NCBI RefSeq assembly: GCF_058153355.1 | Contig: NZ_CM177019.1 | Length of the DNA: 64,000 nucleotides | Direction: 5' to 3' (one strand) | Shown: positions 854 to 57,437 of the stretch, piece after piece | Numbering within the stretch: the stretch's first letter is position 1 | Layout of the letters: each line of letters opens with the position of its first letter | Notes under the pieces: model-generated | Seen by the model: the letters and a program-made list of their open reading frames with translations, nothing else | Database searches by the model: none | What the model was told of the DNA's origin: nothing | Position numbers and translations under genes: made by a program

Positions 854-964
854 AGTCATTTCTCCTTCTAAGAAGCGAGTAAGTACCTGCAAATCCGAAG
901 ATTCGCATATGCTCCCTGACGGCGAGCATGGAGATATCAGGCCGCGCCAGGCGGCCTTAGGGAA

Positions 965-1378: not shown

Positions 1379-1480
1379 AATAAATAGCTCCTGAAATCAG
1401 CGAGAATGTAAGACCTTCCACAATGGACAGGTCAGGTAGCCAGAACACCCATCAGGCGCGTCCTCATCGGCTACGATGTA

Positions 1481-1509
1481 AAAATGGGTCTGGAAATGCA
1501 CTTTTCAAG
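1481..1509 (-). promoter_or_regulatory. sigma32 (heat shock) promoter upstream of ibpA
   Basis: Minus strand reads CTTGAAA, 14 nt spacer, CCCATTTT, matching the sigma32 -35/-10 consensus, about 100 nt upstream of the ibpA start. Confidence 0.55.
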
Positions 1510-1683
1510 CCTTATCAGCGGACTTTTTTTTGCAGTTTATGGTCTATTGCATAGACTGAGGGGGCAGCACGAAACGTTAAAGTGCGATAGCCGCCACAGT
1601 GCGACGTAATGATGATGTTATTTTCAGCAAGGGATCGCTATAACTCATCAGGCCAACACCCACGATCAACAGATGAATTTATT

Positions 1684-2016
1684 ATGATAAGAAATGTGTT
1701 GTTAGCGTTCATGATATGCAGCGGAATGACATTACTCGGAGGATGCTCCAGCGTGATGTCCCATACCGGGGGAAAAGAAGGAACGTATCCCGGCACCCGC
1801 GCCAGCGCCACCATGATTGGCGACGATGAAACCAACTGGGGCACTAAGTCGCTGGCGATTCTCGATATGCCGTTTACCGCTGTGATGGACACGCTTTTAC
1901 TGCCGTGGGATGTGTTCCGCAAAGACAGCTCGGTGCGCTCACGCGTTGAAAAAAGCGAAGCCAACGCGCAAGCCACCAATGCGGTTATTCCACCGGCCAG
2001 AATGCCTGATAACTGA
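1684..2016 (+). CDS. yidQ: small lipoprotein YidQ
   Basis: Internal ATG of track ORF 1609..2016 gives a 110 aa protein with a lipobox (LLGGC); position between ibpA and yidR as in K-12. Confidence 0.8.
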   Translation: MIRNVLLAFMICSGMTLLGGCSSVMSHTGGKEGTYPGTRASATMIGDDETNWGTKSLAILDMPFTAVMDTLLLPWDVFRKDSSVRSRVEKSEANAQATNAVIPPARMPDN

Positions 2017-2017
2017 T

Positions 2018-3268
2018 TTAGCGATCAGTTTCGGTGATCCACAGCTGGCCGCCTTCCATCCACGCTAGCCATCGACCATCCGGCGAGAAGACCACGGCGT
2101 CCGCAGAAGGGGGATTGGCGTGGTTTTCGGTTAAATACTCAACCTCGCCGCTTTGCGCATGGGCGCAAGCAATTCGATTATCCAGCACAAAGCCCAACCA
2201 TTCTCCTGACGGATGCCAGTTAAATGCAGACTGAATATCCGTTTTGTTATGGGTTAACTGGCGCGGCTCGCCGCCCTGTGGCGAGATAAGCCACAGTTGC
2301 ACAATGCCGTTATCATCACGCATTAAAAACGCGATTTGCGTACCCTGCGGATTACAGCGCACCCAGTGGCGCGGGACGTTGACTAACCCCGGATAAGCCC
2401 GATGGTGGGTAAAGGTTAAACGTCGCTGCACGACGCCACGCGGTGGCGCGGGCAGGGTTGTTTCCGTTCCACTTAACGGCGCATCACCTGCTGCTTTCCA
2501 GCCAGCTTCATCTTGCGGTAACTCAACGATGAACAGCTCCGGCACTTTCTCGCCCTTTGGCGAAAGTGTGTCGCCAATAAACGCCAGCGCGTGGTTTCCT
2601 ACCCATCCTTCTTCATAAGCACGATTAATTTCATCACTGCCAGGCTGCGGCGTGGGCGTTGTTTTACTTACCAGTACGCACCAGTGGCTACCGCTGTATT
2701 CACGCGGATGCTGCTTTTGTACGTTGACCGGGCCAAACGGTACCGCAACACTGACGTTGCGCAAATCCAGCGCCGGATCGCGTTCATGCATCACATGGTC
2801 GTTATAGGTAAAGCTCACCATTACACCGTTCGGGCTAAAGACATGTACATGGCTGCCGCCACGCAGCGCCCCTGGCGTATACGGCGCGGTAATATCCATT
2901 GCATCAAGGTTGCTCATCTTGCCGTCTTCAACAATCACGCCTCGACGGTGATGGAAATCGTAATGCCATGTTTCATCAGGATTTTCAGGTCCGTGGATAA
3001 AGACATATTTCTCTGACTTCGGATGAACGGTCACCACGCCGACGTGTGCGCCCTGTGACGCACGGTAGATAACCTCGACCTCACCGGTATGAATATTCAC
3101 ACGTTCAATAGTTTCGCCGGTAAACGACGCCCCAGAAGGACGCACGTCAAATACCAGCCACTGGCTGTCGGGCGTCCAGGTATTGGTATTAGTGAGCAGG
3201 TGATTACGGGGAGCAAAGGTTATCTGTTTCATGGCGTGGTCCTGATACAAAACGGTTTCCGCAATCAT
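2018..3268 (-). CDS. yidR: YidR, beta-propeller-like protein of unknown function
   Basis: 416 aa ORF in the conserved position. An internal ATG at 3232 has a better Shine-Dalgarno (AGGA) and may be the true start. Confidence 0.8.
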   Translation of the reverse strand: MIAETVLYQDHAMKQITFAPRNHLLTNTNTWTPDSQWLVFDVRPSGASFTGETIERVNIHTGEVEVIYRASQGAHVGVVTVHPKSEKYVFIHGPENPDETWHYDFHHRRGVIVEDGKMSNLDAMDITAPYTPGALRGGSHVHVFSPNGVMVSFTYNDHVMHERDPALDLRNVSVAVPFGPVNVQKQHPREYSGSHWCVLVSKTTPTPQPGSDEINRAYEEGWVGNHALAFIGDTLSPKGEKVPELFIVELPQDEAGWKAAGDAPLSGTETTLPAPPRGVVQRRLTFTHHRAYPGLVNVPRHWVRCNPQGTQIAFLMRDDNGIVQLWLISPQGGEPRQLTHNKTDIQSAFNWHPSGEWLGFVLDNRIACAHAQSGEVEYLTENHANPPSADAVVFSPDGRWLAWMEGGQLWITETDR

Positions 3269-3332
3269 ACTTCACAAGGACTTCACTTTCAGACAATAGT
3301 CTTTTGCCATCGTGATGAATGTGAGTGAAAAG

Positions 3333-4433
3333 ATGGAACATTTCGACGTGGCGATTATTGGCCTCGGCCCGGCAGGGTCGGCGTTGGCGCGAAAGTTAGC
3401 AGGCAAAATGCAGGTGATCGCGCTGGATAAAAAGCACCAGTGCGGTACTGAAGGTTTCAACAAGCCTTGCGGCGGTCTGCTGGCACCGGACGCTCAGCGA
3501 TCTTTTATTCGCGATGGACTGACGCTTCCTGTCGATGTGATCGCCAATCCGCAGATTTTCAGCGTCAAAACCGTCGACGTCGCCGCATCGCTTACACGTA
3601 ACTACCAGCGAAGCTATATCAATATTAATCGCCATGCTTTCGACTTATGGATGAAATCGCTGATCCCCGCCAGCGTTGAGGTTTACCACGATAGCCTGTG
3701 CCGGAAAATCTGGCGCGAGGATGATAAATGGCATGTCATTTTTCGCGCAGACGGCTGGGAGCAACACATTACCGCCCGCTATCTGGTCGGTGCCGATGGT
3801 GCAAACTCGATGGTGCGGCGACATCTCTACCCGGATCATCAGATTCGTAAATATGTTGCTATCCAGCAGTGGTTCGCAGAGAAACATCCGGTGCCGTTCT
3901 ACTCCTGCATCTTTGATAATGCGATAACTGACTGTTATTCATGGAGTATCAGCAAAGACGGTTATTTTATCTTTGGCGGTGCCTATCCAATGAAAGACGG
4001 CCAGGCGCGCTTCACGGCGCTAAAAGAGAAAATGAGCGCCTTTCAGTTCCAGTTTGGTAAGGCGGTAAAAAGCGAAAAATGCACGGTGCTGTTTCCCTCA
4101 CGCTGGCAGGATTTTGTCTGCGGTAAGGACAACGCCTTTCTGATTGGTGAAGCGGCGGGATTTATCAGCGCCAGCTCGCTGGAGGGGATTAGCTATGCGC
4201 TGGATAGTGCAGAGATTCTGCGTTCGCTGTTACTGAAGCAGCCGGAGAAGAGCAACGCCGCTTACTGGCGCGCCACCCGCAAACTGCGTTTAAAACTCTT
4301 CGGCAAAATAGTAAAAAGCCGATGCCTGACCGCACCGGCTTTAAGAAAATGGATTATGCGCAGTGGTGTGGCGCATATTCCACAGTTTAAAGATTATCCA
4401 ACGCGCTTCACATCGCCCACCAGCAGGATGTAA
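3333..4433 (+). CDS. cbrA: FAD-dependent oxidoreductase CbrA (YidS)
   Basis: N-terminal Rossmann motif [14 protein letters not shown]. Track ORF starts at 3312 (GTG); start is uncertain between 3312, 3315 and 3333. 3' end overlaps convergent dgoT. Confidence 0.8.
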
Positions 4434-5686
4434 GAGAGCGCGCCAATCAACGCGACGGCGGAGATATAAACCAGTGCAGGCGCGAAACCGTAACCCTGCG
4501 CCAGGTACCCCACCACCAGCGGAACGGTGATGCCGCCCAGACCACCGGCGAAGTTAAACACGCCGCCGGTTAAACCAATCAGCCGCATCGGTGCCAGAGA
4601 AGAGACTAACGACCAGGTAATCGAAGCAAAACCGTTGCCGAAGAATGCCAGCGCCATCAGGCACATAATCATCATCGGATCGTTGGTGTAGTTAGCACCC
4701 ATAATGCAGGTGGAGATCAGCAAACCGCAGATAATCGGCGTTTTACGCGCAAAGCCCAGTGAAAAGCCCTTACGTACCAGCAGATCCGCGACCCAGCCAG
4801 AGAGCAGGACGCCGACAAACGCCGCAAGGAAAGGCACCGTGGTCATAAAGCCCGCTTTCAACGCCGTGATGCCTTTTTCCTGGGTTAAATAGTTCGGGAA
4901 CCAGGTTAAGAAGAACCACAGTGTAGAAGCCACCGCAAATTGCCCAAGATAGACGCCGATCAGTTTACGATGGAACACCAGTTTCCAGTCTTTGGCTGTT
5001 AGCGGCTGACGCGACTCTTTTTTCACTGGCGCATCGCCATCCACCAGACCGCCGCCGTCACGAATGTAATCCAGTTCAGCTTTGCTAATGCCTTTGGTCA
5101 GGCGCGGCGGCTGATAAACCTTAAACCAAATCAGCGACCAGATAATGCCGATACCGCCGGTGACAATGAACACCCAGTGCCAGCTCAACATTTCCTGAAT
5201 CCAGATCAGCAGCGGAGTCAGAAACGCCAGACCGACAAACTGACCAGACGTATAAAAACCCACGGCAGAAGCGCGTTCATGTTCCGGGAACCAGCTGGTC
5301 ACCATCCGGTTATTGGTCGGGAACGCGGGCGCTTCGAAAATACCGGTTATCGCACGCAGACCAATTAATGACATTAAGCCCGTGGCAAAGCCCTGGAATA
5401 ACGTCGCCACTGACCAGCCAAATATCGCAATAAAATAAGTCACGCGAGAACCTACGCGATCTAAAAACCAACCGCCGGGGATCTGACATAAGGTATAAAG
5501 CCAGGCGAAGGCCGAAAATACATAGCCCATTTGCGCTTTGGTAATGCCGAACTCTTCCTGAATATGGGCGGAAGCCACGGCCAGGTTAGCGCGGTCAACA
5601 TAACAAATGACCACCGTAATAAAGATCATCACCAGCGTCAGATAACGCCGACGCCCCGGTTTTGCTGCATTAACGGGAATATCCAT
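4394..5686 (-). CDS. dgoT: D-galactonate:H+ symporter DgoT (MFS)
   Basis: 430 aa from [15 protein letters not shown] matches DgoT; track ORF is extended 15 codons upstream. Confidence 0.92.
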
Positions 5687-5805
5687 AGCGAGCTTTCTCC
5701 AGATTTTGGGCATAGCGAAGCCGCTCACCATGCCCTGTAATGTACAGAGGGTTATATTTTTGTATTGCTGTTTTAGTGCCCGATGAGGGGCTTACGTGGC
5801 AGGAA

Positions 5806-5956
5806 TTACCACTCTGCTACGCTGTTATCTTCATGACGCCAGAGCGGATTACGCCAGTCCGGGGCATTTTTACTGAACTCAATGACTTTGGCTTCGTCGA
5901 TTTCTACGCCTAAGCCCGGTTTCGTTAATGGTTTAAAGAAGCCGCCGACCATGCTG
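5806..5956 (-). pseudogene. dgoD: 3' fragment of dgoD (D-galactonate dehydratase), truncated by IS4
   Basis: Last ~49 codons ([27 protein letters not shown]...NSVAEW) match the DgoD C-terminus; reading frame runs directly into the IS4 end at 5957. Confidence 0.7.
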
Positions 5957-7382
5957 TAATGCCAGTCAGTTAAGCAACTGACTGGCTCTTTTTCGGGGCT
6001 GTGGGGTATTTCCAGGGCCTCTCCTTTACCACTCTCGGGAAGGCCCTTTCCCTTCTTGTCGGTAATTTCACAAGTTGTCCCATACTTGCAAGATCGCGCA
6101 TCAGCTCCGGTATACGTCCCGGTGAAGCGCCCTGCAATGTCATCAGCATTCTCATCACCATTCCGCATGATTCTGAGAAACTCAGTTGATTCGGCCAGTA
6201 ACCTTTCAGATGTTCCGCCATTTTAATCATCTGATATCTCACCAGATTATAAGCCAGTAAGACACCCCACAGCTCTTGCTCCACAAGCTCCGGCTTTTTA
6301 CTTCTCAGCGTCAGCCTGCTCAGTTGCATCGTCTGTTTTATCTCCCTGTATCCCAGTTCGATTTCCCAGCGATGACTGTACAGATCCGCCATTTCTCCTC
6401 CGGGGAAGCGCATGGCGTCCGTCATCGACGTCAGCAGATGGCAGACTTTTCCTTTGCGCGTCACGGTCAGCAGGCGGGCTGTCACTTCATTTCCCAGTCC
6501 CGGCCACTTTTTTCGTGCCTGCGGGCTGGTTTTCAGCTTCACCAGATGATCGCCTTTACCCAGTTTTCTGATCTCTTCATATTGCGCTCCCTTTCTGAGA
6601 GGTATCATCCAGTGGCGGTGTTCTCCCGCCAGGCTCCAGGCATTTAACAGTCCCAGTGAGTAATAACCTTTATCCATTAACGTCAGAGTGTTATCGCCGG
6701 TTTGTTCTATAAGTTGCTCAGCAAGCTCATTTTCGCTGTTCTTCATCGTGCCGAAGGCTGCAGCCGTCAGCAGATGGCTGGTCAGTTCCATCTGGCAGAC
6801 CATTTTGACCTGCGGGTAGAGCGCCGGGTTCCCGGCATGTGTCTGGCGGGGGAAGGCTGCATCGTTCTCTGGTGTATCCGGTGTGCGCCAGAACACACCA
6901 TCGATGGCCAGCAGGGTCAGGCCGCACCAGTGCGGATGCGGCGTGGCGTTATGCCAGAGCTGCGCTGTTTTCGTGAACACGCGGCGGACAGCCTCACTTC
7001 CCAGGCGCTGGCGGGCCTGAATAACGGCACTGGGGGCAACGAAGGGGCGATTGCCCGGCAGCATGATGTCCAGGCGATTCACAATCTGGTGAAGAGGTTC
7101 TTTACGCTCAAGCGCCATGCCAACAATACACCAGACCATCATTTCGAGGGGAAGACGGCGCTTGCGTAGCGTTACAGTACCTGATTCGGCAAGGCAACGA
7201 GAGATGAGTTCGGGGTCGAGGTAATCCCCCAGAGAAGTCAGTGGGTTACGCAGAGAATCGTAACGGGATACCAGATCAAGAGCCTGTCCAATGTGCATAA
7301 AAAAATCCGGAAACAAGTGAGCGTTTCCGGATTCTTACACAGCCACTGGATCGGTCAACTGATCCTTAACTGATCGGCATTA
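5957..7382 (-). mobile_element. IS4 insertion sequence, complete (1426 bp)
   Basis: Terminal inverted repeats TAATGCCAGTCAGTTAAG (5957-5974) and reverse complement of TAATGCCGATCAGTTAAG (7365-7382); single transposase ORF inside; length equals canonical IS4. Confidence 0.92.
5970..7298 (-). CDS. insG: IS4 transposase
   Basis: 442 aa from [20 protein letters not shown] matches the IS4 transposase (DDE family); track ORF 5970..7316 has 6 extra N-terminal codons. Confidence 0.88.
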
Positions 7383-7490
7383 GGCCAAATCGGTCCCGTT
7401 TTTTTTCGCCTTTATTTCGGAGAAGTGTCCAGAGGGGCAAGGGGATTCGGGGGAGTATAATTTCGCCATTCAGAAAGAATGGAAAGAATA

Positions 7491-8017
7491 ATGCAAAACA
7501 GAAAATGGATTTTGACCTCGCTGATAATGACTTTTTTCGGCATCCCCATACTGGCGCAATTACCAACTGGCGCACGGTTGGCGGTAACGATCAGGAGATC
7601 CAGACCTGGCAACGCCCGGAAGACTCTGGCAGCCAGACAGTGATGCAATCGCAGGTCATGAAAAATGTCCGCATGATCTCGCCGCAGGAAACCGAAGTGG
7701 CAAGCATGATGGAGGGAATGATTAAAGTTGTTGCCGAATACCGTAATACAAACAACTCAATAGGCTACACCTTCCGCTATTACGCAACACAAATGAACGC
7801 CGATAAAAATATAAAACTGCTAGCTATTAACGGTATTGCACCGACTGCGGAAAATATTCGTAACGGCAAATATCCGTATATCGTCGATGCCTTTATGGTA
7901 ACGCGGGAAAATACTACGTCAGAAACACAAAAACTGGTCGAATGGTTTTTAACGCCGCAGGGGCAGAGTCTGGTGGAAGATGTGGGCTATGTGCCGCTGT
8001 ATCCAACAATGAAATAA
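7491..8017 (+). pseudogene. yzgL: yzgL-like internally deleted PstS-like binding-protein gene
   Basis: ATG at 7491 encodes a signal-peptide-like start (MQNRKWILTSLIMTFFGIPILA) that runs out of frame after ~50 codons. Frame +2 (track ORF 7505..8017) encodes only the C-terminal half of a protein paralogous to the downstream 330 aa lipoprotein. Confidence 0.6.
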
Positions 8018-8042
8018 CGCTCGAGAGAAAGGAATCAGCGCA

Positions 8043-9035
8043 ATGAATAAATTCACCGGTGTTTTACTATTAGGTACGGCGTTACTGGCGGGATGTGTCG
8101 ACCGGGAAGGGTACTATAACAGCGTCAGGGAAGAAGAGAGTCATGGACTGACGTCTCTGCGGGGGCAACCTGAATTACGTTACAGCGATGATTGGTCAAG
8201 ATGGCCGAGAGTGTACGGCGCTACAGCCTTATACCCGCTGTATGCCTCCGCGTATTATGAATTAGTACCCGAGCCAAAAGATAAGGATCGAACCTCGCTG
8301 GCCTGGCAGGCGTATGGTTTGCAACAAACCCGAACAGCTGAAGCCTACGATAGTCTGATCAAGGGTACCGCGACGGTTATTTTTGTTGCACAACCGTCGG
8401 AAGGACAGAAAAAACGTGCAGAAGAAGCAGGCGTTAAACTGAAATATACCGCGTTTGCCCGCGAAGCCTTTGTCTTTATCGTTGATATCAAAAACCCGGT
8501 TAATTCACTTAGCGAACAGCAAGTCAAAGACATTTTTAGCGGTAAAGTGAGTCGCTGGAATAAAGTGGGCGGCGGTGACGAAAGTATAAAAGTCTGGCAG
8601 CGGCCAGAAGATTCTGGAAGCCAAACGGTTATGAAGGGACTGGTTATGCAAGATACTCCAATGCTGCCAGCCAAAAAATCCACTGTTATCGATCTTATGG
8701 GCGGTTTAATTACCGAAGTCGCCGACTACCAAAACACACCATCTTCCATTGGATACACCTTCCACTATTACGTCACACGTATGAATGACAATATGCTCAA
8801 AATGCGCAAACAGATCAAACTGCTGGCTATAAATGGCGTTGCACCTACAGAGGAAAATATCCGTAACGGCACTTATCCGTACATAATTGATGCTTATATG
8901 GTGACGCACGAAAACCCTACGCTGGAAACGCAGAAATTCGTCGACTGGTTTTTAAGCCCGCAGGGACAGCAATTGGTAGAGGATGTGGGGTATGTGCCGA
9001 TTCATGACGCATCATACGAATCATCAGTGCAATAA
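8043..9035 (+). CDS. putative lipoprotein with PstS/phosphate-binding-protein-like domain
   Basis: 330 aa ORF with Shine-Dalgarno AAGGA, lipobox LLAGC, and C-terminal half about 60% identical by eye to the upstream pseudogene. Family assignment is by motif impression only. Confidence 0.7.
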   Translation: MNKFTGVLLLGTALLAGCVDREGYYNSVREEESHGLTSLRGQPELRYSDDWSRWPRVYGATALYPLYASAYYELVPEPKDKDRTSLAWQAYGLQQTRTAEAYDSLIKGTATVIFVAQPSEGQKKRAEEAGVKLKYTAFAREAFVFIVDIKNPVNSLSEQQVKDIFSGKVSRWNKVGGGDESIKVWQRPEDSGSQTVMKGLVMQDTPMLPAKKSTVIDLMGGLITEVADYQNTPSSIGYTFHYYVTRMNDNMLKMRKQIKLLAINGVAPTEENIRNGTYPYIIDAYMVTHENPTLETQKFVDWFLSPQGQQLVEDVGYVPIHDASYESSVQ

Positions 9036-9637
9036 TGATGAATAAAATCAGACTTTATATTCCTCCGTTAATTCTTGGTTTTGTTATTGTGCCGTTGTTG
9101 GTGTGGCCGACGGTGGTTGCGCTGGCTGCTTCTGTTATCACGCTGAGTTTTCTGGGAGAGATACTGTTCTCTATCCCGCTCATGATCAGGCATATTTCGC
9201 TTCTGCAATTACAACTATGGTTATCGGCTGAATATGCGCTTTTCTGCTGTGCAATGGTGGGCGTTGGTTGGCAATTTGCTCGTATAACTCAATCCGAATC
9301 GAAAAGCAGACTGCATTGTTGGCTGGTATTTGCACCAGTTTATTTCTGGTTGCTCCTGTGGAATATCATTTTCTATGTCGCGCCAGCGAATATTGCGTTG
9401 CTGGAGAATATGCGCAGTTTCTTTCTGACAGTTGTCTGGCTCCCACTGAATTTTTCGCCATTTTGGTCTCAACCGTGGATTGACTTTGTCGGTCCAATAA
9501 GCGCACAGCTTGGTTTTGCGTTGGGATATTATTGCCAGTGGCGTAGCAAAAATAGAAGCCAGATACGGAAGTGGAGTGAGTGGGGAACGTGCCTGAGTTT
9601 TGTTACGTTGGGTATGATGGCGTGGGCTTTGCGGTAA
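9035..9637 (+). CDS. polytopic inner-membrane protein of unknown function
   Basis: 200 aa ORF whose start overlaps the upstream stop (TAATG), implying translational coupling; several hydrophobic segments rich in W/F/L. Confidence 0.6.
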   Translation: MMNKIRLYIPPLILGFVIVPLLVWPTVVALAASVITLSFLGEILFSIPLMIRHISLLQLQLWLSAEYALFCCAMVGVGWQFARITQSESKSRLHCWLVFAPVYFWLLLWNIIFYVAPANIALLENMRSFFLTVVWLPLNFSPFWSQPWIDFVGPISAQLGFALGYYCQWRSKNRSQIRKWSEWGTCLSFVTLGMMAWALR

Positions 9638-27732: not shown

Positions 27733-28434
<702 letters not shown>

Positions 28435-28435
28435 A

Positions 28436-29224
<789 letters not shown>

Positions 29225-38766: not shown

Positions 38767-38804
38767 AAAACAGGAGGCGAAGGTGCCTCCCGTTTTATTT
38801 TGTG
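38767..38804 (+). terminator. rho-independent terminator after envZ
   Basis: aaaacaggaggc-gaa-ggtgcctcccgtttt stem-loop followed by a T-rich run. Confidence 0.5.
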
Positions 38805-38927
38805 CACTCAGTATCTACTGAATGAATACGGTTTCAGACATCGGCACCATACGAAGTAAAGTGTACTGTAAGCTGATTGCAGGCTAGCGTATCCTGATTA
38901 GTAAAAGCACACTAAAGGAATAGCTTG

Positions 38928-40211
38928 ATGCAACTTACCAACGAAGAACAAGTACAGATTGCTCGTATAAAAGAAAAAATCCCACGCATTGCCGCACTGG
39001 ATCCTGAATGTAAGTTATTCGGTTCTGAAGGTTGGAAATATCAATGGCCGAAGCCTGCCAGCGAGGCGGAAATAGCTTCCTGGGAGAAAAAACATAGCGT
39101 CACTTTGCCACGGGAATATCGAATTTTTCTTCGCTATATCGCTAATGGCGGTCCGGCACATGCCTACGGTCTTGAATCTTTAGGCGGTACAGATATTTAT
39201 GGCGATATAACAAAAGAAAGCCCTGTACCGCTTTATATGACGCAGCAGGATGTTGATGTGTTGAATGCAGGCCGTACAGAAGATGATGAAGAATATAGTT
39301 TTTTTGACGGCGCATTGACCATTCTCACCCTGGGATGTACTTATGATATTTGCCTGGTGGTGACGGGGCAGTATCGCGGAAGGTTAATGCTGACTGATGG
39401 TGATGAAGATTATCCGTTTGATTTTATATATGATAAAAATTTCCTCAACTGGTATGAACGCTGGCTGGACGATTTTATTGCTGGCATGAGTATGAAGGGT
39501 TTCGATAGAAGTTTGCCAGGAACGCAAATTCAACTGCGTGAGTGGTTTTTAACTGAGAAAATCCCGGATTTACGTAGATCCATTTTATTCTCGCTATGCC
39601 GTTTTCCACAGATAGAACCCGAAACATTTGCCCTTTGGGAACATGTTTGCCGCACAGAGAATGATAAAGAATTGTGTGAAGAGGCATTCATAAGATTACG
39701 CCAAAAAAAAGTTTCTTGTGCTGCAGATATTTTTCGACTCTATTTTACAATGCCAGATGAATTACGTGATATTGCTATTAAAGATCTCCGTTTTGCCTGT
39801 AGAGATAGTGTGGTGAATATTGAGGATTATATTCATTCACTGTTAATAATAATGCCTGAACTTGACGATGACACTCTATCCTCAGCTGTCTTTGCTGTAC
39901 GAGAAACAGAGTATAATAAATATGATACTTTTCTGCCGCTTCTCGAACGTATCACTGATGACCGTCAGCAAACATTATTGTGGGCGATGAGTAAGGCGCC
40001 TGATTTCAATGAAAGCCGAGGATTCGTTGAGTTGGTATTACCGCTTTTTGCATCATCAAAGATGGAGAATGTAAGGAAGGCTATTTTGTTGCTCATTGAA
40101 GTTAAAGATAATCGTATTCCACCATTGGTTGATGAAGCTGCAACTCGTTTCCCTGAACTGACCATTTTACGAGAAAACTACTATCTCAGGACGTGGGGAC
40201 ATAAGCCATAA
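38928..40211 (+). CDS. SMI1/KNR4 (SUKH-1)-like protein with C-terminal helical extension; putative immunity-type protein
   Basis: 427 aa from the ATG at 38928 with Shine-Dalgarno AAGGA. N-terminal motif EIASWEKKHSVTLPREYRIFLRYIANGG matches the LPxxYxxFLxxxNGG hallmark of the SUKH family. Visibly AT-rich; no counterpart at this site in K-12. Confidence 0.65.
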   Translation: MQLTNEEQVQIARIKEKIPRIAALDPECKLFGSEGWKYQWPKPASEAEIASWEKKHSVTLPREYRIFLRYIANGGPAHAYGLESLGGTDIYGDITKESPVPLYMTQQDVDVLNAGRTEDDEEYSFFDGALTILTLGCTYDICLVVTGQYRGRLMLTDGDEDYPFDFIYDKNFLNWYERWLDDFIAGMSMKGFDRSLPGTQIQLREWFLTEKIPDLRRSILFSLCRFPQIEPETFALWEHVCRTENDKELCEEAFIRLRQKKVSCAADIFRLYFTMPDELRDIAIKDLRFACRDSVVNIEDYIHSLLIIMPELDDDTLSSAVFAVRETEYNKYDTFLPLLERITDDRQQTLLWAMSKAPDFNESRGFVELVLPLFASSKMENVRKAILLLIEVKDNRIPPLVDEAATRFPELTILRENYYLRTWGHKP

Positions 40212-40248
40212 ATTAATGGCTCAGAAATGATCTAACGCGGAGAGAAAT

Positions 40249-40779
40249 ATGATCAGGGAACATATTCAGCAAGCGATAAATAATAGGTTAGCATTTGATG
40301 GCCCATTCAATGTTGTTCCTGAACCTGCAAGCACTGCGTTTGATAGCCGGATCCCGACATTGAAAAACGGTGTCTGGCAGAAGGCCAGCCCTATGTTGCA
40401 GGCGCGTTTTGCACATTGTGGACGTTGGTTAAGCGCTACACATGGAAGCTGGCTAAGTATAAGTGACATGGAAACGCTTTGGCAGGAACACATAGAAGAT
40501 ACGTTTCTTGATGAAATCAAAATGAATGCTGTAGCTTCAAGTGATAATTGGGATAACCATGCCTTGGGACTATTTCGTTCTCATCGCCTGTCACTTTTTG
40601 CCGGTAGTGATTACATTTATGAAATGGTTTTTCTCCTTTGGCTAGATAGTACCGTTGAGCCAGAGGTCTGGGTTTATGACTGCAATGGGGAATCACGTTA
40701 TAAAGATCTTAATGATTACCTGAATGCATATATTAATGATGACGTAAGCGCCTGTGAGCGCTCCTGGCGAGTAGAATGA
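40249..40779 (+). CDS. hypothetical protein (island gene 2)
   Basis: 176 aa ORF with Shine-Dalgarno GGAGAG; AT-rich; stop overlaps the next start (ATGA). No family recognised. Confidence 0.55.
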   Translation: MIREHIQQAINNRLAFDGPFNVVPEPASTAFDSRIPTLKNGVWQKASPMLQARFAHCGRWLSATHGSWLSISDMETLWQEHIEDTFLDEIKMNAVASSDNWDNHALGLFRSHRLSLFAGSDYIYEMVFLLWLDSTVEPEVWVYDCNGESRYKDLNDYLNAYINDDVSACERSWRVE

Positions 40780-41402
40780 ATAGCCCCCCTTGCCCCTTTG
40801 ATCCACAAACCGCACATTACCTCGGTACAGTGCAAATCCACTACACCTCAACCACCTTCAACGCTGCCGTTAAGCATTATACCTATCACATTAAAAAGCG
40901 TTTTAAAGGGTTTAAATGGGGAATTGGTACCGCTGGCTTATTGGCTATATTGCCCATGATCCCACAATGGTTGAAACCTTCTCATGACTTTAAACTCAAC
41001 GCAATCAGTACGTTAATTCTTCTATTAATGTTGCCACTCCTCTTATCAATGTTCCTGTTAATCAGCAGAAGAATTAACGATTTTAAGTCAAAAACAAAGC
41101 AAGTTACTTTTACGAAACCCGTGCGTTATGCGTTTTATTTCGAGGGGATTGTTTTTTATGAATCTCATCAGCAGGGCATACTTCGCTGGGAAGATTTTTA
41201 TAGCATTGACTATGAAGAAGATTATTTGTGGCTTTTTCTGCATTTACCGAAGAGTTTTCCCAGAGAAGCGACGAAAGCGTTTTGCGATATTTTCATTCCC
41301 GCCAGCGCGATAAAAGCGCAGCCTGAACTGGATACGTTTTTTCGTGAAACACGCCACTATCTGGATTATCTGTTTGTCCCGTTTAATTCTGACAGAAAAT
41401 AA
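40776..41402 (+). CDS. hypothetical membrane protein, two predicted TM helices (YcxB-like topology)
   Basis: 208 aa; hydrophobic segments WGIGTAGLLAILPMIPQWL and ISTLILLLMLPLLLSMFLLI followed by a ~100 aa soluble domain; translationally coupled to island gene 2. Confidence 0.55.
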   Translation: MNSPPCPFDPQTAHYLGTVQIHYTSTTFNAAVKHYTYHIKKRFKGFKWGIGTAGLLAILPMIPQWLKPSHDFKLNAISTLILLLMLPLLLSMFLLISRRINDFKSKTKQVTFTKPVRYAFYFEGIVFYESHQQGILRWEDFYSIDYEEDYLWLFLHLPKSFPREATKAFCDIFIPASAIKAQPELDTFFRETRHYLDYLFVPFNSDRK

Positions 41403-41435
41403 AAAATCCCCCGTATCTGGTGAAACGGGGGATTT
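41403..41435. terminator. bidirectional terminator between island gene 3 and pck
   Basis: aaaaaatcccccgt-atctggtga-aacgggggattt stem-loop with A/T runs on both sides. Confidence 0.55.
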
Positions 41436-41454
41436 CGTCGCTTAACTTATCGGA

Positions 41455-50556: not shown

Positions 50557-53109
50557 TCAGAACAATTCCTGTGCCTCGCCATTATCGATAATGGTCGTTC
50601 CCACCTCGTGCACCGCCTGTTGTGTCGGCTGTGTACCTTCGATGAAATACTCTTCGCGGCTGTTGCCACCATTAGCTAACTGCCCGGTGCTGCGATCGAT
50701 ATTCACCGTCACAATACCCGGCGGCGGCGTCAGCGGCTGTTCCGGCACGCCTTCAAGAACGGCTTTCATATAAGCGTCCCATGCAGGCTGGGCACTCTTG
50801 GCACCGCCTTCGTAACCTGAGATCTGATCTTTAATCGCTCCGGAAGCCGTTGTATGACCGAGATTACGGCGGTGATCATCAAAGCCAATCCAAACCGAGG
50901 TCACAACGCCCGGACCGTAACCCGAGAACCACGCATCTTTCGAACTGTTAGTGGTACCCGTTTTTCCGCCGATATCATGCCGTTGTAAATCACGACCTGC
51001 TCGCCAGCCGGTACCCTGCCAGCCTGGCTCACCAAAAATATTGGTGTTCAGGGCGCTCTTAATCAGGAATGCCAGCGGAGTGTTGATGACGTGCGGTGCG
51101 TACTCCTGCGCGCCAGTCTTCGCGACTAACGCCTGATTCGCCTGCTCCAGCTGCGGCATTGGTACAGAAACATTCTGCTGCTCGCGGGAGATAGCGACAT
51201 CTTCAACATCGTTATTTTCCAGCACGTTCGATTTCTGCGTATCACCGTAAATCACCGGAATATCGCATTCCGGGCAGGCTACTTTCGGTTTCGCTTCGAA
51301 AATCACGCCGCCCTGATCGTTTTCAATTTTGCTGATAAACCACGGGTCCACCAGGAAGCCGCCGTTCGCCATTACCGCGTAGCCGCGCGCCACCTGCATT
51401 GGGGTGAAGGACGCTGAACCCAGCGCCAGCGATTCGGTGTGGACAATGTTTTGCGCCGGGAAGCCGAAGCGTTGCAGATATTCTGCAGCGTAGTCGACGC
51501 CCATCGCCCGCATTGCGCGTACCATCACCACGTTTTTCGACTGGCCCAGTCCCTGACGTAAGCGAATTGGACCGGCATACTGTGGTGGTGAGTTCTTCGG
51601 CTGCCAGTCAGAACCGGCACCTGCATCCCAGCGGGAAATTGGCACATCGTTCAACATACTTGCCAGCGTCAGACCTTTATCCATCGCCGCGGTGTAGAGG
51701 AACGGTTTGATGTTGGAACCTACCTGACGCAGTGCCTGGGTGGCGCGGTTAAACTTGCTCTGATTGAAATCAAAGCCACCGACCAGCGCCATAACGGCAC
51801 CGTTTTGCGGATTGATCGACACCAGCGCCGAGTTCACTTCCGGCACTTGTGCCAGCCACCATGTATCGCCAACCTGACGAACCCAGATTTGCTGACCCGT
51901 TTGCAGAACATCGGTCACTTTACGCGGCGTCGGTCCCTGCTGAGTATCCGAACGGTAAGGACGCGCCCAGCGAACGCCTTCCATACTCAATGCGACGGTC
52001 GACCCGTCCGCCAGCATCGCCGTCGCTTCCTGAGGATTGGCGCTGGTGACTGCGGCAGGCAGCAGCGGACCATAGGTCGGCAGCGCCTTCAGCGTATCGG
52101 TAATCTTGTTGTTATCCCACGCCGATTCGCCCACTTTCCACAGCACATTTGCCGGGCCGCGATAGCCGTGGCGCATGTCGTAGTCCAGCACGTTATTACG
52201 TACTGCCTGCTGTGCGGCCTGCTGTACTTTGCGGGTGATGGTGGTGTAAATGCGATAACCGTCTTCATAGGCACTTTCGCCATAACGGTTATACATCTCC
52301 TGGCGCACCATTTCGCTCAGGTACGGCGCAGAGAAAGCAATCTCCGGCGCGTGATAGTTAGCGTTAATCGCCTCAGTGCGTGTCTGATCGAACTGTTGTT
52401 GGGTGATATACCCTTCATCCAGCATCCGCGACAGTACGACGTTACGCCGCGCGACGGCACGATCCATTGAGTAGAGCGGATTAAAGGTGGAAGGCGCTTT
52501 CGGCAGCCCGGCTATCACCGCCATTTCGTTCAGCGTCAGTTGGTCGACCGTTTTACCGAAATAGACTTGTGCCGCAGCACCGACACCATAGGCGCGGTAA
52601 CCGAGGTAAATCTTGTTCAGATAAAGCTCGAGGATCTCGTCTTTCGTCAGCAACTGTTCAATGCGAATCGCGAGGAAGACTTCCTTAATCTTACGCATCA
52701 GCGTGCGTTCTGGACTGAGGAAGAAGTTTCTCGCCAGCTGCTGGGTAATGGTACTCGCCCCTTGTGACGCGTGGCCGGAGAACAGCGCCACACTTGCCGC
52801 ACGGAAGATCCCCACCGGGTCAACGCCGTGATGCTCGTAGAAGCGGCTGTCTTCCGTCGCGATAAAGGCTTTCACCATCTCCGGCGGGATTTGATCCAAC
52901 GTAACCGGAATACGACGTTTCTCACCGTATTGAGCAATCAGCTCGCCATCGGCGCTGTAAATCTGCATCGGAATTTGCAGGCGAACATCTTTTAATGTCG
53001 CCACATCCGGCAGTTGTGGCTCGATGTAGCGGTATAGGCCATAAATCGAGCCTGCTCCCAGCAGAATGCAACAGACTGCAAGGATCAAAAAATACTTTAC
53101 GAACTTCAC
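50557..53109 (-). CDS. mrcA: penicillin-binding protein 1A
   Basis: 850 aa from a GTG start (VKFVKYFLIL); glycosyltransferase and transpeptidase domains. Alternative in-frame ATG at 53133. Confidence 0.93.
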   Translation of the reverse strand: MKFVKYFLILAVCCILLGAGSIYGLYRYIEPQLPDVATLKDVRLQIPMQIYSADGELIAQYGEKRRIPVTLDQIPPEMVKAFIATEDSRFYEHHGVDPVGIFRAASVALFSGHASQGASTITQQLARNFFLSPERTLMRKIKEVFLAIRIEQLLTKDEILELYLNKIYLGYRAYGVGAAAQVYFGKTVDQLTLNEMAVIAGLPKAPSTFNPLYSMDRAVARRNVVLSRMLDEGYITQQQFDQTRTEAINANYHAPEIAFSAPYLSEMVRQEMYNRYGESAYEDGYRIYTTITRKVQQAAQQAVRNNVLDYDMRHGYRGPANVLWKVGESAWDNNKITDTLKALPTYGPLLPAAVTSANPQEATAMLADGSTVALSMEGVRWARPYRSDTQQGPTPRKVTDVLQTGQQIWVRQVGDTWWLAQVPEVNSALVSINPQNGAVMALVGGFDFNQSKFNRATQALRQVGSNIKPFLYTAAMDKGLTLASMLNDVPISRWDAGAGSDWQPKNSPPQYAGPIRLRQGLGQSKNVVMVRAMRAMGVDYAAEYLQRFGFPAQNIVHTESLALGSASFTPMQVARGYAVMANGGFLVDPWFISKIENDQGGVIFEAKPKVACPECDIPVIYGDTQKSNVLENNDVEDVAISREQQNVSVPMPQLEQANQALVAKTGAQEYAPHVINTPLAFLIKSALNTNIFGEPGWQGTGWRAGRDLQRHDIGGKTGTTNSSKDAWFSGYGPGVVTSVWIGFDDHRRNLGHTTASGAIKDQISGYEGGAKSAQPAWDAYMKAVLEGVPEQPLTPPPGIVTVNIDRSTGQLANGGNSREEYFIEGTQPTQQAVHEVGTTIIDNGEAQELF

Positions 53110-53228
53110 TGGAAATTTCCCATTTAGTTTCATTTGGGCAGTTTATAAACAAACGCGCGGTAGTATAAAGGCAAGCCAGACGCATTGATATACCCGTCAG
53201 AGTGACGGGTGATAAGGAGATCATCACG

Positions 53229-54008
53229 ATGGCATTTAAGATCTGGCAAATTGGTTTGCATTTACAACAGCAAGAAGCGGTGGCGGTTGCGATCGTGCGG
53301 GGCGCAAAAGAATGCTTTTTGCAACGCTGGTGGCGGTTGCCGCTGGCGAACGACATAATCAAAGATGGGCGGATTGTCGATGCACAGCGGCTGGCTAAAA
53401 CGTTGTTACCGTGGAGTCGCGAACTGCCGCAGCGTCATCACATTATGTTGGCGTTTCCCGCCAGTCGCACATTACAGCGGTCATTTCCGCGCCCGTCGAT
53501 GTCCCTTGGTGAGCGGGAGCAAACGGCCTGGCTGTCCGGGACGATGGCCCGCGAGCTGGATATGGATCCGGACTCCCTGCGCTTCGATTACAGCGAAGAC
53601 TCACTCAGTCCCGCCTATAACGTGACTGCCGCGCAAAGCAAAGAGCTGGCAACGCTGCTTACTTTGGCAGAAAGGTTGCGTGTTCATGTTAGTGCGATCA
53701 CCCCGGATGCCAGTGCATTACAGCGATTCCTGCCTTTTTTACCTTCTCATCAGCAATGTCTGGCCTGGCGTGATAACGAACAGTGGCTGTGGGCGACGCG
53801 CTATAGCTGGGGGCGCAAACTGGCGGTGGGGATGACTAGCGCGAAGGAGCTGGCGGCAGCGTTATCCGTTGATCCCGAAAGCGTCGCGCTATGTGGCGAA
53901 GGCGGATTTGACCCGTGGGAGGCGGTTTCTGTTCGTCAGCCGCCGCTACCGCCGCCAGGTGGAGACTTTGCCATCGCGCTGGGGCTGGCGCTAGGGAAGG
54001 CGTACTGA
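53229..54008 (+). CDS. hofM: type IV pilus / DNA-uptake assembly protein HofM (PilM-like)
   Basis: 259 aa from MAFKIWQIGL; Shine-Dalgarno AGGAGA; stop overlaps the hofN start. Confidence 0.85.
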   Translation: MAFKIWQIGLHLQQQEAVAVAIVRGAKECFLQRWWRLPLANDIIKDGRIVDAQRLAKTLLPWSRELPQRHHIMLAFPASRTLQRSFPRPSMSLGEREQTAWLSGTMARELDMDPDSLRFDYSEDSLSPAYNVTAAQSKELATLLTLAERLRVHVSAITPDASALQRFLPFLPSHQQCLAWRDNEQWLWATRYSWGRKLAVGMTSAKELAAALSVDPESVALCGEGGFDPWEAVSVRQPPLPPPGGDFAIALGLALGKAY

Positions 54009-54547
54009 TGAACCCGCCAATTAATTTTTTGCCCTGGCGACAGCAACGCCGGACCGCTTTTCTTCGTTTCTGGTTGCTGATGTTCGTTGCGCCTCTGCTG
54101 CTGACCGTCGGGATAACGCTAATATTGCGTCTGACAAGCAACGCCGAAGCTCGCGTAGATGCCGTTTTGCTTCAGGCGGAACAACAACTCGCCCACAGCT
54201 TACAAATAACGAAACCACGTTTGCTGGAGCGCCAACAAATTCGTGAGCAGCGTTTGCAAAGGCAGCGCCAGCGACAATTTACCCGTGACTGGCAATCTGC
54301 GCTGGAAGCACTGGCGGCGCTTTTACCCGAGCACGCCTGGCTGACAACGATAAGCTGGCAGCAGGGAACGCTGGAGATCAAGGGGCTAACAACAAGCATT
54401 ACCGCGTTAAACGCGCTGGAAACGTCACTCCGCCAGGATGCTTCTTTTCATCTCAATCAGCGGGGGGCCACGCAGCAGGATGCGCAGGGACGCTGGCAAT
54501 TTGAGTATCAGTTAACAAGGAAGGTTAGCGATGGACATGCTCTTTGA
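54008..54547 (+). CDS. hofN: HofN (PilN-like)
   Basis: 179 aa from MNPPINFLPWRQQRR; one TM segment; overlapping-gene operon. Confidence 0.85.
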   Translation: MNPPINFLPWRQQRRTAFLRFWLLMFVAPLLLTVGITLILRLTSNAEARVDAVLLQAEQQLAHSLQITKPRLLERQQIREQRLQRQRQRQFTRDWQSALEALAALLPEHAWLTTISWQQGTLEIKGLTTSITALNALETSLRQDASFHLNQRGATQQDAQGRWQFEYQLTRKVSDGHAL

Positions 54548-54971
54548 CTGGTGGTTCGCCACATCACCCCGCCTCCGCCAGCTTTGCTGGGCATTCTGGT
54601 TGATGATGTTAGTTACGCTCATTTTTCTGTCATCGACACACCAGGAAGAGAGCGACGCATTAATTCGACTACGGGCAAGTCATTACCAGCAGTGGGCCGC
54701 ACTGTATCGCCTGGTAAACACCACTCCCTTCAGCGAGGAAAAAACGCAGCCCTTTTCGCCACTGGATTTTCAGTTATCCGGCGCGCAACTGGTTTACTGG
54801 CATCCATCCGCGCAGGGAGGTGAGTTGGCGTTGAAAACGCTGTGGGAAGCAGTGCCGTCGGCATTTACACGGCTGGCAGAGCGCAACGTCAGCGTGAGCC
54901 GTTTTTCGTTAAGCGTGGAAGGTGATGACCTTTTGTTCACGCTACAACTGGAGACGCCGCATGAGGGTTAA
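54531..54971 (+). CDS. hofO: HofO (PilO-like)
   Basis: 146 aa; start overlaps the hofN 3' end. Confidence 0.85.
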   Translation: MDMLFDWWFATSPRLRQLCWAFWLMMLVTLIFLSSTHQEESDALIRLRASHYQQWAALYRLVNTTPFSEEKTQPFSPLDFQLSGAQLVYWHPSAQGGELALKTLWEAVPSAFTRLAERNVSVSRFSLSVEGDDLLFTLQLETPHEG

Positions 54972-55365
54972 ACGCTGGTTGTTGGCAGGTATTGCATTGT
55001 GCCTTTTAACCGGTATGCGTGACCCTTTTAAACCGCCGGAAGATCTATGCCGGATTAGCGACCTTAGCCAGTGGCGCTATCAGGGGATGGTAGGGCGAGG
55101 CGAGCGCATCATCGGTGTAATAAAAGATGGGCAAAAAAAATGGCGACGGGTGCAGCAAAACGATGTGCTGGAAAACGGCTGGACGATCTTACAGCTAACG
55201 CCAGACGTACTAACGCTGGGAACCGGGACAAACTGCGAACCGCCACACTGGTTGTGGCAACGGCAAGGAGATACAAATGAAGCAATGGATAGCCGCACTA
55301 CTGTTGATGCTGATACCCGGCGTACAGGCGGCAAAGCCGCAAAAAGTGACGCTGATGGTGGATGA
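54961..55365 (+). CDS. hofP: HofP (PilP-like lipoprotein)
   Basis: 134 aa from MRVKRWLLAGIALCLLTGM (lipobox-like). Confidence 0.83.
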   Translation: MRVKRWLLAGIALCLLTGMRDPFKPPEDLCRISDLSQWRYQGMVGRGERIIGVIKDGQKKWRRVQQNDVLENGWTILQLTPDVLTLGTGTNCEPPHWLWQRQGDTNEAMDSRTTVDADTRRTGGKAAKSDADGG

Positions 55366-56515
55366 CGTTCCGGTAGCTCAGGTGTTGCAGGCGCTGGCTG
55401 AACAGGAGAAGTTGAACCTGGTGGTGTCGCCAGACGTCAGCGGTACGGTGTCGTTACATCTAACAGATGTTCCCTGGAAGCAAGCACTACAAACTGTAGT
55501 GAAAAGCGCCGGACTGATAACGCGTCAGGAGGGCAACATTCTCTCGGTGCATTCCGTTGCCTGGCAGAATGACAATATCGCCCGTCAGGAGGCGGAGCAG
55601 GCGCGGGCGCAGGCAAATCTGCCGCTGGAAAATCGCAGTATAACCCTGCAATACGCCGACGCGGGAGAACTGGCGAAAGCGGGGGAGAAGCTACTGAGTG
55701 CCAAAGGGAGTATGACCGTCGATAAACGCACCAATCGCCTTTTGCTGCGAGATAACAAAGCGGCGTTAAGCGCGCTTGAACAGTGGGTAGCGCAAATGGA
55801 TCTGCCGGTCGGGCAGGTTGAGCTGTCGGCGCATATTGTCACCATTAATGAAAAAAGTTTGCGTGAGTTAGGCGTGAAATGGACGTTGGCTGATGCGCAA
55901 CAAGCTGGTGGCGTTGGGCAAGTCACCACGCTTGGCAGCGACCTCTCCGTAGCGACGGCGACAACGCATGTCGGTTTTAACATTGGACGCATTAACGGAC
56001 GTTTACTGGATCTTGAGCTTTCCGCGCTCGAACAAAAACAGCAGCTGGATATTATCGCCAGTCCGCGTCTGCTGGCCTCACATCTTCAGCCTGCCAGCAT
56101 TAAACAGGGGAGTGAAATTCCATATCAGGTTTCCAGCGGGGAAAGTGGCGCGACGTCGGTGGAATTTAAAGAGGCCGTCCTGGGGATGGAAGTTACGCCC
56201 ACGGTGTTACAAAAAGGTCGCATCCGGCTGAAATTACACATCAGCCAGAACGTTCCGGGGCAGGTGCTACAGCAGGCCGATGGCGAAGTGCTGGCGATTG
56301 ATAAGCAGGAGATCGAAACGCAGGTCGAGGTCAAAAGCGGAGAAACGTTGGCGCTGGGTGGCATTTTTACCCGTAAAAATAAATCGGGTCAGGATAGCGT
56401 ACCGTTGCTTGGCGACATTCCCTGGTTCGGGCAATTATTTCGTCATGACGGAAAAGAAGATGAACGACGCGAGTTAGTGGTGTTTATCACGCCACGACTG
56501 GTTTCCAGTGAGTAA
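55277..56515 (+). CDS. hofQ: secretin HofQ (PilQ/ComE-like outer-membrane channel)
   Basis: 412 aa with signal peptide; secretin-family C-terminal domain. Confidence 0.9.
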   Translation: MKQWIAALLLMLIPGVQAAKPQKVTLMVDDVPVAQVLQALAEQEKLNLVVSPDVSGTVSLHLTDVPWKQALQTVVKSAGLITRQEGNILSVHSVAWQNDNIARQEAEQARAQANLPLENRSITLQYADAGELAKAGEKLLSAKGSMTVDKRTNRLLLRDNKAALSALEQWVAQMDLPVGQVELSAHIVTINEKSLRELGVKWTLADAQQAGGVGQVTTLGSDLSVATATTHVGFNIGRINGRLLDLELSALEQKQQLDIIASPRLLASHLQPASIKQGSEIPYQVSSGESGATSVEFKEAVLGMEVTPTVLQKGRIRLKLHISQNVPGQVLQQADGEVLAIDKQEIETQVEVKSGETLALGGIFTRKNKSGQDSVPLLGDIPWFGQLFRHDGKEDERRELVVFITPRLVSSE

Positions 56516-56915
56516 ACAGCCGTAAAAGCGGTAATGTTTTTACGCTGAACGTGTTTCATCTATTTGACGCGCGCAGGTATTTAGCATACAAGGAGTACCG
56601 ATTTGAGAGTTGGTGCTCTTCGCTGCCTGCGTTCCATGATGATGATTTATCATTCAGGCGGCATTTTGCTGTCTTTTTTACGCTAATCTTACCCGGTGAT
56701 TTATCGCCAGAGCGGTGGTAGCAAGGCAGCGCGCTTGCAGCGACCAGATATGCAGAGGGATGGGTGATTTATTCAGTTGCCAAACCCGCTGGAGTATTGA
56801 GATAATTTTCAGTCTGACTCTCGCAATATCTTATGAGGTTTCAGTTCATGTCCTGCGGCGCTCTCTGAGCGAAGCGGGTTTATCATTAACGAATAGTCTT
56901 AGTAGTACCGAAAAA

Positions 56916-57437
56916 ATGGCAGAGAAACGCAATATCTTTCTGGTTGGGCCTATGGGTGCCGGAAAAAGCACTATTGGGCGCCAGTTAGCTCAACAACTCA
57001 ATATGGAATTTTACGATTCCGATCAAGAGATTGAGAAACGAACCGGAGCTGATGTGGGCTGGGTTTTCGATTTAGAAGGCGAAGAAGGCTTCCGCGATCG
57101 CGAAGAAAAGGTCATCAATGAGTTGACCGAGAAACAGGGTATTGTGCTGGCTACTGGCGGCGGCTCTGTGAAATCCCGCGAAACGCGTAACCGTCTTTCC
57201 GCTCGTGGCGTTGTCGTTTATCTTGAAACGACCATCGAAAAGCAACTTGCACGCACGCAGCGTGATAAAAAACGCCCGTTGCTGCACGTTGAAACACCGC
57301 CGCGTGAAGTTCTGGAAGCGTTGGCCAATGAACGCAATCCGCTGTATGAAGAGATTGCCGACGTGACCATTCGTACTGATGATCAAAGCGCTAAAGTGGT
57401 CGCAAACCAGATTATTCACATGCTGGAAAGCAACTAA
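56916..57437 (+). CDS. aroK: shikimate kinase I
   Basis: 173 aa from [22 protein letters not shown] (Walker A); track ORF 56715..57437 is a long upstream extension. Confidence 0.95.

Follow-up and report, generated by a model that had tools for sequence, protein, structure and literature searches.

The closest described counterpart of the locus considered here is the hofMNOPQ operon of Escherichia coli K-12 MG1655 (yrfDCBA-hofQ), which has been treated as orthologous to the comABCDE operon of Haemophilus influenzae, with yrfD as the orthologue of comA (PMC1635313). The two operons share CRP-S/Sxy-dependent regulation and function in DNA uptake; CRP-S sites are predicted at two positions in the enterobacterial promoters and at one in those of the Pasteurellaceae (PMC1635313). 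The gene order is also that of the pilMNOPQ clusters of type IVa pilus systems in P. aeruginosa, V. cholerae, Neisseria and Myxococcus. We analyzed positions 53229-56515 of a 64,000-nt stretch of contig NZ_CM177019.1 (RefSeq assembly GCF_058153355.1), which we refer to as the window. We identify this segment with high confidence as the hofMNOPQ operon of the E. coli chromosome, orthologous to K-12 b3395-b3391, H. influenzae comABCDE and Pseudomonas pilMNOPQ. The operon, its regulation and its DNA-uptake role have already been described for E. coli, and there is nothing new at the locus. The value of the analysis lies mainly in a correct annotation, namely that the strain carries an intact hofMNOPQ operon together with an intact yhgH gene encoding a ComF homologue. 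It also documents at the level of predicted folds that HofM and HofP are reduced PilM- and PilP/GspC-like proteins missed by the curated sequence models.

We re-derived the five genes from the listing of open reading frames (ORFs) and by direct translation of the window strand:

hofM, 53229-54008, + strand: 259 residues, predicted cytoplasmic PilM/GspL-like actin-fold protein, from a fold match to a predicted model
hofN, 54008-54547, + strand: 179 residues, bitopic inner-membrane PilN homologue, PF05137
hofO, 54531-54971, + strand: 146 residues, putative bitopic inner-membrane PilO/GspM-like protein, PF25319
hofP, 54961-55365, + strand: 134 residues, PilP/GspC-HR-like periplasmic connector; its last 29 codons are shared with hofQ
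hofQ, 55277-56515, + strand: 412 residues, outer-membrane secretin; NF007851, TIGR02515 and the Pfam domains STN, Secretin_N and Secretin

Every ORF opens with an ATG and ends at a single terminal stop, with no frameshift or internal stop. The first-pass annotation had described five intact ORFs with overlapping junctions under the names hofM to hofQ, and re-examination bears this out. The overlaps measure 1 nt for hofM/hofN (a literal TGATGA within TACTGATGAAC), 17 nt for hofN/hofO, 11 nt for hofO/hofP and 89 nt for hofP/hofQ. The starts of hofM, hofN, hofO, hofP and hofQ are preceded by the Shine-Dalgarno-like motifs AAGGAG, GGGAAGG, AAGGAAGG, GGAG and AAGGAG, respectively, those of the overlapping genes lying within the preceding gene. 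These are not chance ORFs, since every one of their products has a match among the curated families or the solved folds.

The naming is backed by synteny and identity with K-12. The locus is colinear with K-12 positions 3516000-3526000 at 97.9% nucleotide identity, and the order found is mrcA, divergent and upstream, then hofM-N-O-P-Q, then aroK-aroB-damX downstream. The annotated K-12 operon b3395-b3391 shares the genes, their order and their strand relation to mrcA and aroK, as well as the product lengths (259/179/146/134/412 residues) and the overlaps (1/17/11/89 nt), so that gene lengths and junctions are identical in the two strains. The differences are allelic only. Gene by gene, the nucleotide identity to K-12 ranges from 94.4 to 98.2% with no indels, and the amino-acid substitutions number 3 in HofM (98.8% identity), 10 in HofN, 10 in HofO, 2 in HofP and 4 in HofQ. 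Public databases already contain identical HofM, HofN and HofQ proteins of E. coli under those names, in 756, 632 and 147 contigs, respectively. An identity to K-12 of 94.7-97.9% across the window left room for a species other than E. coli, a reading that we reject because the best matches to the region are E. coli genomes (99.1-99.8%) and these exact proteins are E. coli entries.

The intactness of the operon had been considered worth noting, an assessment we do not share. For 5425 of the 5426 complete E. coli genomes, a megablast search with the region gave at least 80% query coverage, with hofM-hofQ annotated, and the operon is intact in all seven E. coli alleles that we compared (the window, K-12, N96, ST131, N56, ampC_0069 and 3R). 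As K-12 is equally intact, an open operon is the default state of the species. What is less usual is the allele. Records at least 99% identical to the window region number only 18 of the 5426, the top matches being E. coli genomes at 99.1-99.8% and the best reaching 99.8%, which indicates that the window allele comes from an uncommon E. coli lineage, while the operon itself belongs to the core genome.

The PilMNOPQ-like nature of the products, likewise proposed in the first-pass annotation, is upheld by family and fold tests. It is supported at the family level for HofN and HofQ, at the fold level for HofM and HofP, and by a dedicated family of its own for HofO. HofQ scores 856.6 bits against the curated HofQ model NF007851 (cut-off 598), aligning from residue 1-412 to model position 1-412, and 448.1 bits against the PilQ model TIGR02515 (cut-off 284.35). 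It fits PilQ far better than the GspD model of type II secretion, against which it scores 196 bits, below the GspD cut-off. A signal peptide (MKQWIAALLLMLIPGVQA) is followed by the STN/N0, Secretin_N/N1 and secretin domains recognized by Pfam. HofQ is homologous to the solved PilQ secretins 6ve2, 4av2 and 3jc8 and to the HofQ of A. actinomycetemcomitans (2y3m), and its residues 23-409 align to residues 158-569 of the competence secretin PilQ of V. cholerae (6w6m) with E 1.6e-74. Since the alignment begins at PilQ residue 158, HofQ has no counterpart of the N-terminal ~157 residues of that protein and is thus a short PilQ-type secretin with no N-terminal extension left after the signal peptide (412 residues as opposed to 571-901 for type IVa PilQ secretins). 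We take the missing part to be the AMIN region. HofN, the protein encoded second, matches PF05137 (PilN) with 37.9 bits (cut-off 22.8). Its N-terminus MNPPINFLPWR, at the start MNPPINFLPWRQQRR, precedes a hydrophobic span and may correspond to the INLLPWR-like PilN motif bound by PilM in the PilM:PilN peptide structures 2ych and 5eou.

The remaining three products lie below or outside the curated PilM, PilO and PilP sequence models. HofO has no match to a PilO model, and the sole family it matched is the HofO EspM-like domain PF25319 (89.1 bits). HofP belongs to a dedicated family, PF10748 (262.6 bits), and goes unrecognized by the curated PilP sequence models. A search against PDB sequences found no significant relatives of HofM, HofN, HofO or HofP. 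Because the sequence models and the PDB search missed HofM and HofP, their folds were compared instead. The core of HofP is a β-sandwich (HR) domain whose fold matches GspC-HR and PilP; the protein is 54-64% identical among Escherichia, Salmonella and Citrobacter, with LTGMR, C30 and C92 among its invariant residues. The AlphaFold2 model of HofM, built with 38 homologues, reached a pLDDT of 95.2 and a pTM of 0.92. Its top Foldseek matches were P. aeruginosa PilM (5eoy, E 5e-13), cyto-GspL (4pht_Y, TMt 0.66), T. thermophilus PilM (2ych, TMq 0.71) and FtsA. As modeled, HofM has the actin-like FtsA/PilM/GspL fold. It is, however, ~95 residues shorter than PilM (259 versus about 354), with a size nearer cyto-GspL, and from its secondary-structure layout we infer that it probably lacks the 2B subdomain of PilM. 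The HofM family is small, as phmmer over 1.84 billion representatives returned about 160 relatives, the full-length ones having about 240-290 residues. In the first phosphate-binding strand, E. coli HofM carries HLQ in place of the DIQ of its relatives. Compared with type II secretion systems, where GspL is one protein, HofM and HofN are separate, and no other gsp genes lie near the operon.

In K-12, Sxy induces yrfD (hofM) 16-fold, with a strict need for CRP and cAMP, and transcription of the operon is otherwise poor or undetectable in laboratory culture (PMC1635313). The literature agrees with the description of the genes as cryptic in laboratory E. coli (PMC1635313, PMC3330819). A passage of Cameron and Redfield (PMC1635313) gives two predicted CRP-S sites for the yrfD promoter, one of them at -246, and what it says of the fragment used for the electrophoretic mobility shift assay (EMSA) puts the sites at its ends; CRP binding to this promoter was weak (PMC1635313). 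Over the 329 bp in front of hofM (52900-53228), position 53228 is the sole difference from K-12, so that whatever CRP-S sites K-12 has are present here. The published EMSA primers map to 52953-52972 (yrfDF) and 53058-53079 (yrfDR), within the mrcA coding sequence. Scanning the whole window for TGCGA-N6-TCGCA with up to two mismatches returned 28 matches, compared with 46.8 expected, and none upstream of hofM. Relaxing the scan to three mismatches brought out two candidates that fit the published description, listed here with the region in front of hofM:

Candidate distal CRP-S site ATCTGCATCGGAATTTGCAGGC, 52961-52982, within the mrcA coding sequence: 7/10 of the core, with C6 and G17; the distance from its 3' end to the hofM ATG is 246 nt
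Candidate proximal CRP-S site TAAATCGAGCCTGCTCCCAGCA, 53042-53063, within the mrcA coding sequence: 7/10 of the core, with C6; at the other end of the EMSA fragment; weak
mrcA-hofM divergent intergenic region, 53110-53228, + strand: 119 bp, with the hofM Shine-Dalgarno motif AAGGAG at 53214-53219

The candidate hofM regulatory sites would fall in the 5' part of mrcA, a gene on the opposite strand, no further than ~170 nt into its coding sequence. The mrcA ORF spans 50557-53133 (- strand) from an ATG at 53133 and encodes 858 residues; the start annotated in K-12 and in strain N96 is a GTG, at 53109 here, giving 850 residues, and the ATG of the window ORF lies 24 nt further upstream. A scan of 52900-57100 for promoters and terminators did not rise above the shuffled expectation (promoters 4 versus 3.5, terminators 4 versus 5.3). 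As the terminators are at the shuffled level, we claim none for hofQ; a promoter-like site at 56777-56806 is a possible aroK promoter. Rfam had no match in or near the operon. The sole Rfam match of the window is a ROSE_2 RNA thermometer at 1372-1444 (- strand; 96 bits, E 1.4e-20), directly upstream of an ibpA-like ORF (965-1378).

The operon encodes two parts of a type IVa pilus or competence machine, its outer-membrane channel and the alignment subcomplex that spans the envelope. By analogy with the described systems, it would be silent in ordinary culture and switched on by Sxy (TfoX) with cAMP-CRP at the non-canonical CRP-S sites upstream of hofM. HofQ would multimerize into a gated secretin pore, and HofP, with its PilP/GspC-HR fold, would by homology make contact with the N0 domain that HofQ has in the periplasm. 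HofN and HofO, as single-pass inner-membrane proteins, would pair through their periplasmic domains, and the cytoplasmic actin-fold protein HofM may clamp the N-terminal INFLPWR tail of HofN, as their homologues suggest. The PpdD pilin, the HofB ATPase and the HofC platform, encoded elsewhere, would complete a machine with which a short pilus could cross the outer membrane and draw double-stranded DNA inward as far as the periplasm; downstream factors including the ComF homologue YhgH would then handle the DNA. The genes ppdD-hofB-hofC for the pilin, ATPase and platform were not found in the 64-kb window and lie far away in K-12. Unlike in H. influenzae, comF in E. coli forms a separate transcription unit, which the window contains:

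yhgH/gntX (ComF homologue), 27733-28416, - strand: intact ORF, K-12 b3413 'DNA utilization protein YhgH', outside the operon

Two TGCGA-type half-matches occur 200-260 nt upstream of yhgH, inside bioH (28624-28639 and 28659-28674); such matches are not above chance in the window.

The published functional data come from other strains. Expression of sxy lets E. coli K-12 take up DNA, transformation being abolished in a hofQ::kan mutant, and PpdD pilin is made on sxy induction (Sinha and Redfield, PMC3330819). The level of hofQ mRNA is higher when DNA is supplied (PMC9273947), and growth on DNA as a nutrient was addressed by Palchevskiy and Finkel in 2006, as cited in PMC9273947. Since hofQ-dependent uptake and the use of DNA as a nutrient have been published, the experiments that the first-pass annotation proposed, on nutrient use of DNA and on transformation, have already been done in other strains.

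Several observations count against so complete an equivalence with a working PilMNOPQ-type machine under Sxy control. HofM scores 15.8 bits against the PilM model TIGR01175, far short of the cut-off of 133, and its other profile match, T2SSL, is a weak one (18.2 bits, cut-off 25.5). Unlike PilP, HofP does not conserve a lipobox cysteine; Cys14 of the E. coli protein is preceded by a leucine and is not kept in the homologues from Salmonella, Citrobacter and E. fergusonii. The coordinates 52961-52982 and 53042-53063 of the candidate CRP-S sites are ones that we infer from a motif scan not above chance. Induction by Sxy and CRP and hofQ-dependent uptake are K-12 results, from which the window strain, read from its sequence alone, would be expected to behave alike only by analogy. 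The gene hofO evolves almost neutrally within E. coli and is the least constrained of the operon, with a pN/pS (ratio of non-synonymous to synonymous polymorphism) of 0.63 among the seven alleles, 21 of its 146 codons polymorphic at the amino-acid level, and 10 non-synonymous as opposed to 2 synonymous changes relative to K-12. Finally, hofM is annotated as frameshifted in the O157:H7 strain ECP17-1298 (201-979 of locus L005) and contains an in-frame stop in one Salmonella contig (2236-3015 of locus L010), with hofN-hofQ still open in both. These two inactivated copies suggest that the system is dispensable in some lineages.

A machine with the same components and mechanism could serve mainly to display a surface pilus for adherence or host colonization rather than to take up DNA for nutrition. 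We consider this unlikely as the main natural role, although it is the best placed of the alternatives. The uropathogenic E. coli strain UTI89 lacking hofQ and CFT073 ΔyheF ΔhofQ both have a kidney-colonization defect at day 7, which is rescued by hofQ in trans (Kulkarni et al., PMC2649431), and the production of PpdD pilin on sxy induction (PMC3330819) would fit a displayed pilus as well. However, no adherence or invasion defect was found in cell culture in the same work (PMC2649431), whereas the dependence of DNA uptake on hofQ was shown directly (PMC3330819). The two roles are not mutually exclusive, and the sequence holds nothing that discriminates between them.

The weak constraint on hofO raises a different possibility, that the operon is an evolutionary relic whose ORFs are intact but unused and drifting toward pseudogenization. 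Besides the near-neutral changes in hofO, the inactivated hofM copies in O157:H7 and Salmonella, the modest identity of HofP between genera (54-64%), and the poor or undetectable transcription in the laboratory (PMC1635313) speak for it. Among the seven alleles, however, the pN/pS values of hofM (0.18), hofP (0.20) and hofQ (0.08) indicate clear purifying selection, and that of hofN is 0.19. Synonymous divergence is greatest in hofN. Purifying selection on most of the operon argues against a relic, as do the retention of at least 80% of the region in 5425 of the 5426 genomes, the gene order and overlaps kept across genera, and the published hofQ-dependent phenotypes (PMC3330819, PMC2649431). 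A relic is therefore very unlikely, and we retain the reading of a maintained DNA-uptake operon.

The overlaps can be followed beyond E. coli. In Citrobacter they measure 4, 17, 11 and 98 nt (hofP/hofQ at 4317-4414 of locus L011), and in Salmonella 1, 17, 11 and 86 nt (hofP/hofQ at 4317-4402 of locus L010), the last value being obtained with the hofQ start placed at the ATG that has a Shine-Dalgarno motif and a signal peptide. The overlap architecture is ancestral, and the long hofP/hofQ overlap is conserved across the genera (89, 86 and 98 nt). The invariant HofP motif RQGxxNEAMDS coincides with the Shine-Dalgarno motif, the ATG and the first codons of hofQ (cggcaAGGAGatacaaATGaagcaatggatagc). 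Past this motif, the sequence of the HofP tail (residues 107-134) varies, and the tail is predicted to be disordered. Most simply, the overlap would be tolerated owing to the lack of constraint on this tail.

The first-pass annotation had seen in these junctions a sign of tight translational coupling. This is a plausible inference for the overlaps of 1, 17 and 11 nt, but it is less apt for the hofP/hofQ overlap, where 89 nt separate the hofQ AUG from the hofP stop downstream of it and where the Shine-Dalgarno motif and AUG of hofQ are predicted to be unpaired; classical termination-reinitiation does not fit such an arrangement. When the RNA of the four junctions was folded, the z-scores ranged from -1.0 to +0.85, which is unremarkable and thus no evidence of an mRNA structure enforcing the coupling.

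It is conceivable, though in our view rather improbable, that the long hofP/hofQ overlap and the near-neutral evolution of HofO are functional features and not incidental ones. With the ribosome-binding site and start of hofQ inside RQGxxNEAMDS, the overlap could set the ratio of HofP to HofQ or tie the synthesis of the secretin to ribosome traffic on hofP. The variability of HofO, and of HofN, could result from diversifying pressure on an envelope component. To our knowledge, a functional role of the long overlap or of HofO variability has not been the subject of an earlier study.

That the 89-nt overlap is an annotation artefact, with the true hofQ start further downstream or the true hofP end further upstream, is the least credible of the alternatives. 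Overlaps of this length are indeed unusual, and the HofP tail within it is variable, with disorder predicted. However, the hofQ ATG at 55277 follows an AAGGAG at a distance of 7 nt and begins a typical signal peptide, NF007851 aligns over the whole of HofQ, the hofP frame has no stop before 55363-55365, and in Salmonella and Citrobacter an equivalent ATG, Shine-Dalgarno motif and signal peptide yield the 86- and 98-nt overlaps, respectively.

The rest of the window differs from K-12 in several places. An IS4 copy at 5957-7382 (transposase ORF 5970-7316, - strand), flanked by 1-5956 and 7383-7561, joins a yidE-ibpBA-yidQR-cbrA-dgoT block to DNA just downstream of glgP. The block lies outside the K-12 region that was compared (3.511-3.576 Mb) and is presumably located near 3.86 Mb in K-12. 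Since IS4 brings together blocks that are far apart in K-12, the window is rearranged relative to that strain. In none of the complete E. coli genomes is 80% or more of window positions 1-9600 covered in one place. Between the remnant of the glgP-downstream DNA and glpD (7505-9637) are three ORFs absent from K-12, two encoding PstS-family/PBP_like_2 proteins and one of 200 residues with no Pfam match. The ORF at 7505-8017 matches just the C-terminal half of its profile and abuts IS4, and it is therefore probably truncated.

A 2.66-kb island at 38797-41453, between envZ and pck, carries one ORF for an SMI1/KNR4 (SUKH) protein of 428 residues and two that match no family. Only 19 of the 5426 complete E. 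coli genomes contain this island, and several of the 19 also have the hof alleles nearest to that of the window. Across 9578-38796, the identity to K-12 is lower than is usual within E. coli (94.7% over the 15.8 kb from glpD to malQ, and 96.1% from gntT to envZ), as compared with 97.5-97.9% around the hof operon.

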